Shown in pieces: positions 19,605 through 37,690 of a stretch of 64,000 bases of DNA. Every line of letters starts with the position of its first letter. Position 1 is the stretch's first letter. This stretch comes from Escherichia coli (GTDB taxonomy: Bacteria; Pseudomonadota; Gammaproteobacteria; Enterobacterales; Enterobacteriaceae). A program made the translations under genes and the position numbers. A model generated the notes under the pieces. That model ran no database searches and was not told where the DNA came from. It was given only the letters and a program-made list of their open reading frames with translations. Location: assembly GCF_016026235.1 (NCBI RefSeq), contig NZ_CP065613.1; one strand, written 5' to 3'.

Positions 19605-19973
19605 TATAGGTCCTGGATGTTGGATTTTTTTATCCTGTTAGCGACCTTGACGAGTACCAAAAAGCGCGAAGTTCAACTATTGTTCTGTGGTGTTCTGTTG
19701 CGTGTTGACGGCAAAATTTTGCTGGCGTAACATGCGCGCACGATCACTCTAAGAGGACATTCGCCTTGGACACACCCAGTAGATACTGGCTCACTATCCT
19801 GTCATCCAGGATCAACTCCTAAGGCTATCCCTTTTTGCTGATAGCCTTAGCGGTTGTCAGCGACCTCAATTTTTCCCGTCGCGCTGAGTCAGGCTGTTTA
19901 ATGGTCTGAAACCCAATTTGTTTCTGTGTGCCCACCGAACTGTCCGATATTTTAAGCATTGGGAGTCCCGGTC

Positions 19974-20924
19974 ATGCTGAGCGCATTTCAACTGGAAAAT
20001 AACCGACTGACCCGGCTGGAAGTCGAAGAGTCACAACCCCTTGTAAATGCAGTATGGATTGATCTTGTCGAACCGGACGACGACGAGCGACTGCGCGTAC
20101 AATCTGAACTTGGCCAGAGCCTGGCAACCCGCCCGGAACTGGAAGACATCGAAGCATCGGCACGTTTCTTTGAAGACGACGACGGCCTGCATATTCACTC
20201 CTTCTTCTTCTTTGAAGATGCGGAAGATCACGCCGGTAACTCCACTGTGGCATTTACCATCCGTGATGGTCGTCTGTTTACTCTGCGTGAGCGTGAACTG
20301 CCCGCTTTTCGTCTGTATCGTATGCGTGCCCGTAGCCAGTCGATGGTAGACGGTAACGCCTACGAGCTGCTGCTGGATCTGTTCGAAACCAAAATCGAAC
20401 AGTTGGCAGATGAAATTGAAAATATCTATAGCGACCTGGAGCAGTTGAGCCGGGTGATTATGGAAGGGCATCAGGGCGATGAGTACGACGAGGCGCTCTC
20501 CACTCTGGCGGAACTGGAAGATATCGGCTGGAAAGTTCGCCTGTGTCTGATGGATACCCAGCGCGCGCTCAACTTCCTGGTGCGTAAAGCGCGTTTACCG
20601 GGTGGGCAACTGGAGCAGGCGCGTGAAATCCTGCGAGATATCGAATCCCTGCTGCCGCATAACGAATCCCTGTTCCAGAAGGTGAACTTCCTGATGCAGG
20701 CGGCGATGGGTTTTATCAACATCGAGCAGAACCGCATCATCAAAATCTTCTCGGTGGTATCCGTGGTATTCCTGCCGCCGACGCTCGTTGCTTCCAGCTA
20801 TGGGATGAACTTTGAGTTTATGCCAGAACTGAAGTGGAGTTTCGGCTACCCAGGCGCGATTATCTTTATGATCCTCGCGGGCCTGGCACCGTATCTGTAC
20901 TTTAAGCGCAAGAACTGGCTGTAA
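19974..20924 (+). CDS. corA: Mg2+/Co2+ transport protein CorA (316 aa from ATG 19974)
   Basis: [17 protein letters not shown]...; C-terminal [11 protein letters not shown] signature (GMN motif) and two TM helices. Confidence 0.95.
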
Positions 20925-20977: not shown

Positions 20978-21457
20978 TTATTTAAAGTCATGCGGATTGA
21001 AAACTCGCTCTATTTTATTTTCTTGTGTTAATTGATACTCAGTAAAATCGTTAATACCAATATGAGTGTTACGATAAGGGTATTCATTAATAACCATTAA
21101 GTAATTTTTCACGATGCAATTATCATTGCTCTTAATTGTCGGGAAACAGTAGAGATCTTCATACGGCCCTTCGATATATTTTTTATAGTCAGTGAAGCCA
21201 TTACCGATATCAATGACATACCAGGTATGCCAACTACCTTCTGGTAGGGGATGTTGATTTTTAATTTCATTCTGATGCTTCAGATACCAATTTATTTTAT
21301 CGCTGTCAGTCCATGGCAGATGATCAACGACCAGAAAGACTGAATTGCCAGCATCAGAGTATGTATACAAAATCTGTACAGGACGCAATGTCCATAAATT
21401 ATAGATGCAGCATAGAAGAAATAAACATAATATAATTTTCTGGAGTTTGCTTTTCAT
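20978..21457 (-). CDS. Hypothetical protein with N-terminal membrane anchor or signal (159 aa); second gene of low-GC islet
   Basis: ORF with hydrophobic N-terminus (IILCLFLLCCIYNLW) and W/Y-rich soluble domain; start overlaps stop of the upstream 284 aa gene by 4 bp (ATGA); very AT-rich codon usage. Confidence 0.6.
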   Translation of the reverse strand: MKSKLQKIILCLFLLCCIYNLWTLRPVQILYTYSDAGNSVFLVVDHLPWTDSDKINWYLKHQNEIKNQHPLPEGSWHTWYVIDIGNGFTDYKKYIEGPYEDLYCFPTIKSNDNCIVKNYLMVINEYPYRNTHIGINDFTEYQLTQENKIERVFNPHDFK

Positions 21458-22308
21458 AGATAATTTTCGATTCTTTCGATAGTGTTAAAATTGGTGAAAA
21501 AAGGTTTGAAAGCAAAGTCTTTATGCCGTTGTAAAAAGAACCATATGCGAAAAAATCTATATTTGCTGTAAGTCTTGTTTTTGATATCAGTTACATCAAG
21601 ACCGAAGTGGTCCTGTGCTACAAAATGAATTGTTGCACTCCATCCTATAGCGTATTTTTGAAAACTTAAAAGAGATATTTTTTGAGCTGAAATATCATGA
21701 ACACTGATTCCTAAGCCATTAAAACTGTCCTCGAAGTCATTAAATTTATTTAGTCTTGATGAAAGTAATTTGGTTTTAATGCTTTGCAGGATAAGAGGTT
21801 GGTATCCTGTCGAGGGAGTTGAATTAATGCCATTTTCGATACATTCTTTGATTATTCGTATTGGACTATTATAACCATATTTATTTATTTTTTCATGAAA
21901 AGATAAATTTAATTGTTGGCTATGAAAATTGCTGCCATTTCCATATCTAAAATGTTCAATCAGATCTTCGATAAGTGTTTTATATTGTCCAAAAAAGGAA
22001 AGCATTTTTGCTAGTTCTTTCATTTCTGCAAATAAAATATCAGTGCATTCACGTTGTGATATTTTTGTTCCGGAACTTGAGGCACTAAAAGCAACATTAA
22101 TAGAACCTGGGCCAGGGAAATGGTATTTAATAAGTCTGTAAGGATCAACTTTTGCTGAGATATCGCTTAGGCCGAGTGAGAGAAAGTCTTGTTCTACCAT
22201 ATCACCATATTGCATATCATCAGCAGAAAAATCATCGAATAAACTAATAGTTTCGAAAAGTGTACAGGGAATATTAATTGGCGGAAGTAATATGTTATTC
22301 ATTTGCAT
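21454..22308 (-). CDS. Hypothetical cytoplasmic protein (284 aa); first gene of low-GC islet
   Basis: Long ORF in a low-GC segment absent from K-12 as I recall it; no recognisable Walker, GxSxG or nucleotidyltransferase motif on inspection. Confidence 0.6.
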   Translation of the reverse strand: MQMNNILLPPINIPCTLFETISLFDDFSADDMQYGDMVEQDFLSLGLSDISAKVDPYRLIKYHFPGPGSINVAFSASSSGTKISQRECTDILFAEMKELAKMLSFFGQYKTLIEDLIEHFRYGNGSNFHSQQLNLSFHEKINKYGYNSPIRIIKECIENGINSTPSTGYQPLILQSIKTKLLSSRLNKFNDFEDSFNGLGISVHDISAQKISLLSFQKYAIGWSATIHFVAQDHFGLDVTDIKNKTYSKYRFFRIWFFLQRHKDFAFKPFFTNFNTIERIENYL

Positions 22309-22659: not shown

Positions 22660-23046
22660 TTAGTGTGCTGACAGCGACATTTTAGCCGAGGGAATCGCAG
22701 ATAACATAATTGTTGTGAATAATATCCATGCCACGTTGAGTTGGACGCTTAATGACTCACATCTCACCCCTTCAATTGCTGCAGAGATAATAGAAAAAAG
22801 TGTCAAACCCAATGAAATCAATACAAAGTAGATTGCCTTACATCCAGTATCTCTTATTCTTTTTGCTCCAATATTGATATTTACATAGGTATTATTAATA
22901 ACCAGAATAAAACTCAAAGCCAGGTTGATATCATTCAAAGTTATTAATATTGACCATGATGTTAATGTATAGATTATGAACTGAAAGCGTGATAAACGCT
23001 CAAGCCTGGATGGGTAGAATATATTTCTGATGGATGATTTGAACAT
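22660..23046 (-). CDS. yigF: Small inner membrane protein (DUF2628-like)
   Basis: 128 aa hydrophobic ORF in the expected position between corA and rarD; low GC. Confidence 0.6.
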   Translation of the reverse strand: MFKSSIRNIFYPSRLERLSRFQFIIYTLTSWSILITLNDINLALSFILVINNTYVNINIGAKRIRDTGCKAIYFVLISLGLTLFSIISAAIEGVRCESLSVQLNVAWILFTTIMLSAIPSAKMSLSAH

Positions 23047-35629: not shown

Positions 35630-35734
35630 TGAATATTAACGAGTCACTGTAAATTGCAGTACGATGAAAGAGGCAAAACTGCCTGATACCAGGCCTACAT
35701 AATTTATGCAATTTATTGAATTTTTGAGTTTTGT

Positions 35735-35775
35735 TGGCCGGACAAGGCGTTCACGCCGCATCCGGCATGAACAAC
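35735..35775. repeat. REP element
   Basis: GGCCGGACAAGGCGTTCACGCCGCATCCGGCATGAACAA downstream of metE. Confidence 0.65.
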
Positions 35776-35913
35776 GCGCACTTTGCCAATAATCTGATGG
35801 CTTCCATCACCGGAAGCCATTTTGCTATCTGCGCCCGTTCAGATACAGAAATAACCGAATCATTTTTACGCAAAATATAATCCTGAGCGATTTGTTCAGT
35901 AATCAACGCTACG

Positions 35914-36189
35914 TTATTTATTCTCACTTTTCACGAAATTGTATCCCTTTTCAGTAACGTGGTAGTGAGGCATAGACTTATGTCCGCTATCCTCAATAAT
36001 AACCAAACCCTCGTTAGCTAATTTGTTAACAATGTTAACAACATTACCGAATCCTGGAATTTGCCTTATGGATAGTGTGCGATCGAGATTCATCCAGTTC
36101 CAGTTTATATCTTTCTCAGCCATAACTTTCAGTACGTTAATTTCAGTTTCAGTTATCATAGTCAAGTGCATCCTGGTGGTATAAGTCAT
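35914..36189 (-). CDS. Small hypothetical protein, candidate immunity protein for the upstream Hcp-ET toxin (up to 91 aa; true start may be an internal Met)
   Basis: ORF immediately downstream of, and overlapping, the 3' end of the toxin-domain ORF; the usual toxin-immunity gene arrangement. No homology check possible here. Confidence 0.45.
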   Translation of the reverse strand: MTYTTRMHLTMITETEINVLKVMAEKDINWNWMNLDRTLSIRQIPGFGNVVNIVNKLANEGLVIIEDSGHKSMPHYHVTEKGYNFVKSENK

Positions 36190-37296
36190 TAAGTTCTCCC
36201 TTAAGTTTATAATCTTCTAGAGTAGCAGTATGCGTATGATTCCAGAGTGCATAGCCTGCGTCACCATCAGGTTGTCCTGTTTCCCAACCAAGATTACAGT
36301 AACGCTGATATTCCCGACACTCATGAGTATAGAAGTTAAGATCTACTTGTTCTGGGGGGATTTTTCCTTTCTCAATGTCTTTCAGTCTATTGATCATCAC
36401 TTCATTTACAGGGTCATGACCAAATCTGGCTATGTGTTTTTCAACAATAGCGATACCTTCCCTGTTGATTGTTACGCCATCTGTCGTCAGATTTTCTATT
36501 GGACCACCGGCAAGGTCGGGATTAAATGGTCTTCCTGATACTGCTCCTCTGGCTCCGAAATGCTCAAGTGATTCCAAATCAGGGAGTCTCATTCTCCCCA
36601 GAACTGCTCCAGCAACTATTGAAGCACCAGCGATGAGTAACCCTTTGTTATCCATAAATTGATCGTAACCAGCAGGTGCATCTCCCCCCAACTTGTCTGC
36701 TGTTTCCCTGAATCCTTCGATATTCCCATTGTATATGCCGCCAGCAGCAAGCAGTCTGCCAACCGCTTTACTATTAAGTGTTTTGAACCATTACCAGCTT
36801 TAGTTTTTGGCCGTGGTATAAACAGACGGTTGTAGTTATCGGGAAATGCCAAATAACTAAATTCAGTATTAGCAATCAGATGCCTGGAGAGTATATATTC
36901 ATAACTGACAGTGATGGCTTCTGTATCCAGATTGTTCTCAGTAAACAGGTGATTGATTGCTGATAAGAGCGCGCCGCGGAGTTGAATGTTGTAATATTTC
37001 TCCCATCGACCAAACCTATTGATCCGATAGAAGTCAAACTCCATGAACAACTGCTCGTTATTGTTAATAGCGTTAATAAGTAACGGGGAGCTTTTGTCAA
37101 TCAATTTACAGAAACTAAGGCCATGCAATTATGACCCTTTGCCTGTATTCGTAATACTATTAGAGAGCGAGAACGCGAAGATTTCATCATCATGGCCAAT
37201 CTGCCAGCGATTACCTATTGATGCGCTCGTTCCACAACGAGAGGAAATACATCCTTGTTGTTCTCCGGTTATGGTCAGGTAAATAATATCACTCAT
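36149..37296 (-). pseudogene. hcp: T6SS Hcp with C-terminal extended toxin domain (Hcp-ET type), broken by an in-frame TAA and a frameshift
   Basis: Minus-strand ATG at 37296 encodes MSDIIYLTITGEQQGCISSRCGTSASIGNRWQIGHDDEIFAFSLSNSITNTGKGS*, an Hcp N-terminal signature; same frame continues after the TAA (37129-37131) with ...KLIDKSSPLLINAINNNEQLFMEFDFYRINRFGRWEKYY... (Hcp core); a frame change near 36745 joins it to a ~180 aa C-terminal domain. Confidence 0.7.
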
Positions 37297-37690
37297 CCTT
37301 GAAAAACCTTTTGTTAATTCTTTTGTGAAAGAGAAATAGTATTGTTGTTTTTTTTTACCTTTATTTACGCCTAAAAGTGATGAACTAAAATGTGAAAAAC
37401 AAAATGTTTCACTTTAATATCTTTTTATCAGGAAGGTCTGAGATGATTTATAATTAATGTGAATGTGTTGATAATAATTAATGTTTGTTTGTGAATGGGA
37501 GTTGATGGTAAATCTCTAAGGTGTCTTCCATTGAAGAGACTCATTTATGACTATGACTTGCCGACTTTTTTAAGGTCAAATAGCGGAGTCGTAATCTCCA
37601 ATCAATTCATACTGATTATTTTTTGGGGGACAGAGATGGCAGCAAAACGCACTCGTTCACTCACCATCTCAAATATAGACTAAGAGGAAA

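Follow-up and report, generated by a model that had tools for sequence, protein, structure and literature searches.

What is encoded in the DNA that separates metE from ysgA in the Escherichia coli chromosome represented by contig NZ_CP065613.1 (assembly GCF_016026235.1)? We analysed a stretch of 64,000 nucleotides (nt) of this contig, here called the window. A reading made from the letters alone (below: the sequence-only reading) had recognized between these two genes a type VI secretion system (T6SS) inner tube protein, Hcp, which is extended by a C-terminal toxin domain and followed by a small gene in the position of an immunity gene. Hcp proteins with such extensions form the Hcp-ET class, for which two reviews (PMC6730261, PMC6099711), summarizing Ma et al. 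2017, give Hcp-ET1 (an HNH-DNase) and Hcp-ET3-4/Usp of strain UTI89 as examples. We consider it highly probable that the locus is the remnant of an Hcp-ET antibacterial effector locus, with a dead toxin gene and an immunity gene that has remained intact. The features on which this view is based are the following.

37296..37129, 37128..36616, and 36691..36149, minus: three consecutive open reading frame (ORF) fragments, followed by a small ORF ending at 35914
36149..37296, minus: hcp-ET pseudogene (Hcp domain, linker, and toxin domain), 99.3% identical to the intact gene of strain RM13516
36892..37281, minus: Hcp (TssD) tube-protein domain (Pfam T6SS_HCP), residues 6-135 of the repaired protein
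36557..36846, minus: linker or pre-toxin region, residues ~151-247
36152..36556, minus: toxin domain of the carocin D / pyocin G type, residues 248-382 (~135 amino acids, aa), predicted to be all-alpha
37129..37131, minus: premature stop codon TAA, Gln56* (CAA>TAA, C>T at 37131)
36787..36789, minus: 1-nt deletion (one T in GGT TTC, codon 170, ~36788), causing a frameshift
35914..36159, minus: intact gene for an 81-aa winged-helix protein (WP_000627421.1), the probable cognate immunity gene

The hcp-ET pseudogene

The ORFs and peptide strings quoted in the sequence-only reading are all present on the minus strand, the peptide strings within the three ORF fragments. As intact reference we used the gene from E. 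coli O145:H28 strain RM13516 (L011:1501-2649, 1,149 bp), which is found at the same chromosomal place and codes for a protein of 382 aa (WP_025380640.1). The window sequence differs from it by 8 nt in 1149. Because of the Gln56* stop and the 1-nt deletion relative to this intact ortholog, the window copy is a pseudogene of the Hcp-ET class. A frameshift had been suspected near 36745; the frame is indeed broken, and the lesion is located ~40 nt upstream, at ~36788, whereas 36745 falls where the two frames overlap. It is unlikely that 37131 and 36788 are sequencing errors, since strain FDAARGOS_943 has both lesions and Gln56* is also found in strains O121 RM8352 and EC2641. The deletion is common to the window and FDAARGOS_943 and does not occur in O121 RM8352. 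The 2,070-bp islands of FDAARGOS_943 and the window do not differ at all (100% identity), and on this identical DNA RefSeq annotates a tssD pseudogene and a "colicin" fragment.

The N-terminal region is, as judged by profile searches, a true Hcp (TssD) domain. Two alleles of the locus are distinguished below, allele A (strains LH85-a and CFT073) and allele B (the window and RM13516). The intact protein of allele A matches TIGR03344 with 124.9 bits, well above the curated cut-off of 58.9 (E=2.8e-36, residues 1-147). In the intact 382-aa protein of allele B, T6SS_HCP (E=1.3e-13, residues 6-135) is the sole Pfam match. Hcp chains from the PDB are matched with E=8.5e-15 (6a2v), 1.5e-12 (3he1), and further values up to 4e-7. 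The profile searches thus speak against an N-terminus that is not Hcp-like. From its sequence, the locus has an Hcp domain with a toxin extension that also occurs in other polymorphic toxins, and an overlapping small gene immediately downstream, as is typical for the Hcp-ET class; the intact, expressible ORF that also belongs to this class is missing in the window copy.

The toxin domain and its carriers

The C-terminal toxin domain is predicted to be all-alpha (AlphaFold2 [AF2] model with a predicted local distance difference test score [pLDDT] of 95.7). It has no match in Pfam (even at E<=10), NCBIfam, PADLOC, or PHROGs, and none in the PDB, including a search with a profile of 25 homologs. 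An exhaustive profile search retrieved 868 clusters (50% identity) that contain the domain at E<=1e-3. As most direct homologs were short fragments, carrier architectures were taken from a search of representatives. Most of the 148 best representatives, proteins of 150 to 5,157 aa, have the domain at their C-terminus, with a median tail of 5 residues. Pfam analysis of 36 full-length carriers revealed Pyocin_S in 15, Cloacin in 3, RHS repeats in 2, and LysM in 2, together with one case each of PAAR, ColA_N, and T6SS_HCP; a carrier of 2,644 aa is an SpvB/Rhs protein. The C-terminal place on such diverse carriers implies that the domain is a polymorphic toxin or bacteriocin killing module. The earlier assignment of the extension as a toxin domain is thus upheld, since the domain is also C-terminal on pyocins and on Rhs, PAAR, and LysM proteins. 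Invariant or nearly invariant positions (domain numbering) are H41, R44, F45, R57, L58, D72, Y76, H78, E79, R81, E82, R85, Y86, W105, N106, H109, T110, T112, L113, E114, and D115.

A Foldseek search against AFDB50 matched carocin D from Pectobacterium carotovorum (D8WUT9, 836 aa) with E=2e-10, a template modelling (TM) score of 0.94, and 44% sequence identity. Many proteins named "S-type pyocin / colicin transporter / PAAR / RHS" were also matched. The C-terminus of a Pseudomonas aeruginosa pyocin is 45% identical to the toxin domain (BLASTP E=2e-32). The 87-aa gene downstream of this pyocin codes for a protein that starts with MLNLE and ends with EKKYGIV, which is close to ImSX2 in length and in its primer-encoded termini. 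Judged by sequence and modelled fold, the C-terminal domain and the killing domains of carocin D, pyocin G, and pyocin SX2 are homologs. It is thus a known, experimentally lethal type of bacteriocin warhead, the substrate of which is disputed. Pyocin G has a cytotoxic domain and an immunity protein that have been described as homologous only to carocin D, a DNase in vitro (PMC7322526), and both carocin D and carocin S3 have been reported as DNases (PMC7322526, PMC7461348). Pyocin SX2 has a pyocin G-like domain, which carocin D and S3 have as well; the purified protein did not act as a DNase whatever the conditions, but it inhibited in vitro transcription-translation (PMC10422930). We consider the odds about even that the target is DNA on the one hand, or RNA or translation on the other.

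The His/Asn/His spacing around a "WNHTH" motif had been taken as loosely reminiscent of HNH-type nucleases, and an HNH-type (beta-beta-alpha-metal) DNase may seem an obvious candidate, given that "HNH endonuclease" is the name of some database entries for fragments of the protein and that HNH domains occur on other Hcp-ET proteins (PMC6730261). Pfam HNH and Colicin-DNase are not matched even at E<=10, the predicted fold is all-alpha, and the "WNHTH" motif sits within a helix of the AF2 model, so that an HNH-type DNase is effectively refuted. A non-HNH DNase of the pyocin S3 type was also suspected and was dropped, because the carocin D unit, which has no Pfam domain, has been described as differing from HNH DNases and from those of the pyocin S3 type alike (PMC5821083, PMC5909648). 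Mutagenesis data for carocin S2 were set aside as a guide because its killing domain is described as colicin D-like.

The linker that precedes the toxin domain holds a Gly/Ala-rich hydrophobic segment, LLIAGASIVAGAVLG (residues ~218-238, ~36584..36646), with a Kyte-Doolittle maximum of 1.62 over 19 residues. An Enterobacter carrier that is not an Hcp protein (P0056) has the same linker ahead of its toxin. Pfam detects no Pyocin_S domain in the 382-aa protein, and the pyocin-type carriers have Pyocin_S at the place where Hcp-ET has the hydrophobic segment. It may be speculated that the segment is an alternative device for membrane entry. Hydrophobic stretches were also observed before the toxin domain in many short carriers (P0073, P0082, P0084, P0114, and others).

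The downstream gene and the alleles of the locus

The 91-aa ORF that the sequence-only reading placed in the immunity position is kept beside intact homologs and overlaps the end of the toxin gene. Its length is most likely 81 aa, as homologs and RefSeq point to ATG 36159 as start codon rather than ATG 36189, and the extra 10 residues have no counterpart elsewhere. The gene overlaps the stop codon of the toxin (36151..36149) by 11 nt, and the toxin-proficient strain RM13516 has the very same DNA sequence for it. The AF2 model of the protein (pLDDT 95) has the winged-helix order H-b-H-H-b-b-H. The family comprises 357 clusters, essentially all from Enterobacterales, and has no Pfam domain.

A small gene directly follows the toxin in every locus inspected. 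Overlapping equivalents are found in allele A of E. coli (85 aa, 59% identical), after an Hcp-ET from Citrobacter freundii (78 aa, 78% identical), in Enterobacter cancerogenus after a protein that combines a DUF8093-type N-terminus with this linker and toxin (83 aa, 37% identical), in a vgrG-DcrB-PAAR effector locus (79 aa, hidden Markov model [HMM] E=2e-13), and in another metagenomic locus. The winged-helix family thus follows Hcp, PAAR, and DUF8093-type carriers. A second family of small proteins, ImSX2-like, was observed after the pyocin-type carriers of P. aeruginosa and Rouxiella (L005:5397-5660, L015:4594-4869), with 47% identity between the two.

Comparison of alleles A and B revealed that the DNA is 98-100% identical over nt 1-800 and 68-73% identical over nt 900-1100. 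At the protein level, identity is 98.7% in the Hcp domain, 93% in the linker and the first part of the toxin, and 62% in the last 87 residues of the toxin; the immunity proteins are 59% identical. In the allele A loci (L002:4864-5109, L003, L013, L014), the cognate 85-aa gene is followed by a second gene of 81 aa, which is 88% identical to the B-type immunity. From this gene content, allele A strains may have immunity against either variant of the toxin. Replacement of the toxin tip jointly with the immunity gene, along with the keeping of orphan immunity genes, is typical of polymorphic toxin loci, and it favours an immunity role of the small gene over a regulatory one. Because the gene is kept after the toxin on any carrier and co-varies with the C-terminal half of the toxin, we consider it likely to be the cognate immunity gene.

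Several points weigh against reading the locus as the remnant of an effector with its immunity gene. Secretion, toxicity, and immunity are all inferred for this locus, and assembly of the intact protein into hexameric rings and its T6SS-dependent secretion are predictions. The publications cited above disagree on what the toxin family does biochemically. No T6SS genes are annotated in the ~65 kb of FDAARGOS_943 that match the window (collinearity outside the island being assumed); the description as an orphan locus without another T6SS gene nearby is thus confirmed. Promoter-like matches upstream of the gene are at chance level (8, compared to 5.7 +/- 2.3 in shuffled sequences). The 81-aa protein has a predicted fold of a DNA-binding type, and its relatives are often named "MarR family transcriptional regulator" by NCBI. 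Finally, the winged-helix and ImSX2-like families are not detectably similar in sequence: hhalign gives a probability of 0.3%, and HMM and BLAST comparisons are not significant.

The last of these points, together with a weak match to an HTH of the Lrs14 family (E=0.023), would fit a small MarR-like protein that regulates transcription of the locus instead of conferring immunity, and so would the winged helix-turn-helix topology and the names of its relatives. We consider this improbable. The gene overlaps the toxin stop and is always found directly after the toxin domain whatever the carrier, including the vgrG-DcrB-PAAR locus; it diverges in step with the C-terminal half of the toxin, and an extra orphan copy is found after the cognate gene. 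It has the same size (~10 kDa) as ImG, ImSX2, and CaroS3I (PMC7322526, PMC10422930, PMC7461348), and the short motifs NLDR, EG, and VTEK.Y, common to the winged-helix and ImSX2-like families, hint at remote homology with the pyocin immunities.

Intact toxin genes are present in RM13516, TUM14759, and LH85-a. In other strains the gene has been damaged further or in other ways: O121 RM8352 has a second stop at codon 133 in addition to Gln56*, and EC2641 has an IS903B insertion in addition to Gln56*. FDAARGOS_943, with DNA identical to the window, has an IS1 inserted beside ysgA. The second allele was knocked out separately, by W98*, in CFT073, Nissle 1917, and JA0257. Toxin sequence with 96% identity is also found in a Shigella sonnei cluster named "IS1 orfB", which points to one more disruption associated with IS1. 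By this comparison, several lineages have lost the toxin independently of one another and have kept an intact immunity gene.

The toxin domain as such is still encoded in one open frame (36691..36149, a 180-aa ORF starting with TTG 36691), RefSeq annotates this frame as a 150-aa "colicin" coding sequence, and the same fragment occurs in many genomes (P0001, 236 member sequences). The locus might thus not be fully dead, if this frame were translated and formed an intracellular toxin-antitoxin-like pair with the immunity gene. We judge this very improbable, even more so than a regulatory role of the small gene. The residual frame has neither a ribosome-binding site nor promoter evidence, and it is open simply because the lesions are located upstream and are recent (8 nt from an intact gene). 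The sister lineages gain further lesions (IS903B, second stop, IS1), as neutral decay predicts, and a toxin without its Hcp carrier is not deliverable.

Genomic setting and implications

The surroundings of the pseudogene and the small gene are as follows.

metR, metE (plus), island, ysgA (minus), udp, rmuC: gene order on the E. coli chromosome
35629 and 37691: stop codons of metE and ysgA, respectively, with the island on the minus strand in between
37297..37690, minus: upstream region from the ysgA stop to the hcp-ET start, AT-rich (33-39% GC), the presumed promoter region

A megablast search of 5,426 complete E. coli genomes found the Hcp-toxin gene in 846 (about 16%), chromosomal in every case; the full island region is also confined to a minority. 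Strains K-12 MG1655 and BL21(DE3) offer no better match to the region than a multi-copy REP-like repeat of ~110 bp (~35687-35797 of the window), located at another genomic place, and the GC content of the island is 33-46%, compared to ~55% in metE and ysgA. The island is therefore accessory DNA, as had been proposed in view of a short metE-ysgA spacer in K-12. Neither flanking repeats nor an integrase that would mark it as a mobile element were found. The upstream region 37297..37690 is kept in loci of the allele A/ysgA type. It contains two imperfect tandem copies of an AT-rich 24-nt unit, ATAATTAATGTGAATGTGTTGATA (37450-37497), possibly a regulatory site or a chance occurrence. In the B2-type strains CFT073, Nissle 1917, and JA0257 (L003, L013, L014), the left neighbours are hxlB, a ptsG-like phosphotransferase system gene, and tkt, not ysgA; the metE-proximal accessory region of these strains is larger and differs in its make-up.

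A REP/BIME-like repeat is located between the immunity gene and the metE stop (35687-35830) and is not present in allele A loci. It is a multi-copy element, matched in 5425 of the 5426 genomes at a median of 9 places. Rfam yielded only sub-threshold matches to REP-derived small RNAs (naRNA4, 32.9 bits, gathering threshold 59.5), and a terminator-like hairpin (35694..35681) is found inside the repeat. A 58-aa ORF on the minus strand (35751-35927), annotated as hypothetical protein WP_001222305.1 in the identical RefSeq genome, enters this element. Indels interrupt this ORF in allele A loci, and other allele B genomes annotate a different ORF of 40 aa there; it is probably not a gene. Elsewhere in the window, beside corA (19959-20924), there is an accessory pair on the minus strand (20978-22308), which codes for a member of the YPO3983 family (TIGR03034, 436.6 bits) and, overlapping it, a protein of 159 aa annotated as DUF943. 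A partial corA duplicate is found beyond this pair in a near-identical genome, and a 128-aa membrane-like ORF is close by (22660-23046).

In its intact form, the 382-aa protein would consist of the Hcp tube domain, a hydrophobic Gly/Ala-rich linker of ~100 aa, and the all-alpha toxin of ~135 aa. By analogy to the published Hcp-ET class (PMC6730261, PMC6099711), it would become part of the inner tube of a T6SS whose genes are located elsewhere in the genome, and would be shot into adjacent bacteria. As its bacteriocin homologs suggest, the toxin would attack nucleic acid in the cytoplasm, with DNA or some component of translation as its target. Position, conservation, and co-variation point to the 81-aa winged-helix protein as the partner that would bind and neutralize the toxin in the producer and its kin. 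The window locus no longer attacks, because its toxin gene is dead (Gln56* and frameshift), and its immunity gene, if transcribed, would at most shield the host from relatives armed with allele B.

The locus resembles the Hcp-ET effectors of Enterobacteriaceae described in the two reviews in having an Hcp tube domain with a C-terminal toxin and polymorphic C-termini, in having one or more immunity genes directly downstream, sometimes in several copies, and in being, as these often are, an orphan away from the T6SS cluster; it differs from them in that the window protein is without a Pyocin_S translocation domain and the window copy is a pseudogene. The combination of Hcp with a toxin of the carocin D / pyocin G type is not among the five Hcp-ET clans that the two reviews list. 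With carocin D, pyocin G, and pyocin SX2 the locus shares a homologous killing domain (44-45% identity, TM 0.94), which has neither a Pfam family nor a solved structure, and a subsequent immunity gene for a ~10-kDa protein. These bacteriocins, however, are diffusible and have receptor-binding and Pyocin_S translocation domains, whereas the carrier here is Hcp with a hydrophobic linker, and their immunities (ImSX2-like, 87-91 aa) are not detectably similar in sequence to the winged-helix protein. Polymorphic PAAR/Rhs effectors of T6SS with orphan cassettes have the same toxin domain on PAAR and Rhs carriers, a sharp identity break in the toxin-coding region, and extra immunity genes downstream; they differ in carrier and delivery site, which is the spike in their case and the tube in ours. 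We thus regard the locus as an ordinary member of the known Hcp-ET class that is in decay and whose type of toxin has been described less.

The window copy itself is non-functional as a weapon. Its analysis explains the fragmented annotation of "tssD pseudogene + colicin + hypothetical protein" beside metE, where CFT073 and Nissle 1917 are among the strains that have the gene, and ties this cluster to a bacteriocin toxin family that has no Pfam model, structure, or agreed activity. The intact E. coli alleles (RM13516, LH85-a) offer a genetically easy system to study toxin action and neutralization by a winged-helix protein, and they also suit the question how an Hcp-borne toxin without Pyocin_S reaches the cytoplasm. 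Decay of the toxin with retention of the immunity gene is a clear case from nature in which a weapon is given up and the protection is kept. We tentatively suggest, as a combination that is rather unlikely to hold as a whole, that enterobacterial T6SS versions of this toxin have winged-helix immunity, that the hydrophobic linker replaces Pyocin_S in crossing the inner membrane, and that selection acts on immunity alone. If this is true, the repeated loss of the toxin with the immunity strictly kept (the O121 and CFT073/Nissle lineages, and FDAARGOS_943 and EC2641, which have the lesion of the window) would reflect selection for "immunity-only" genotypes.

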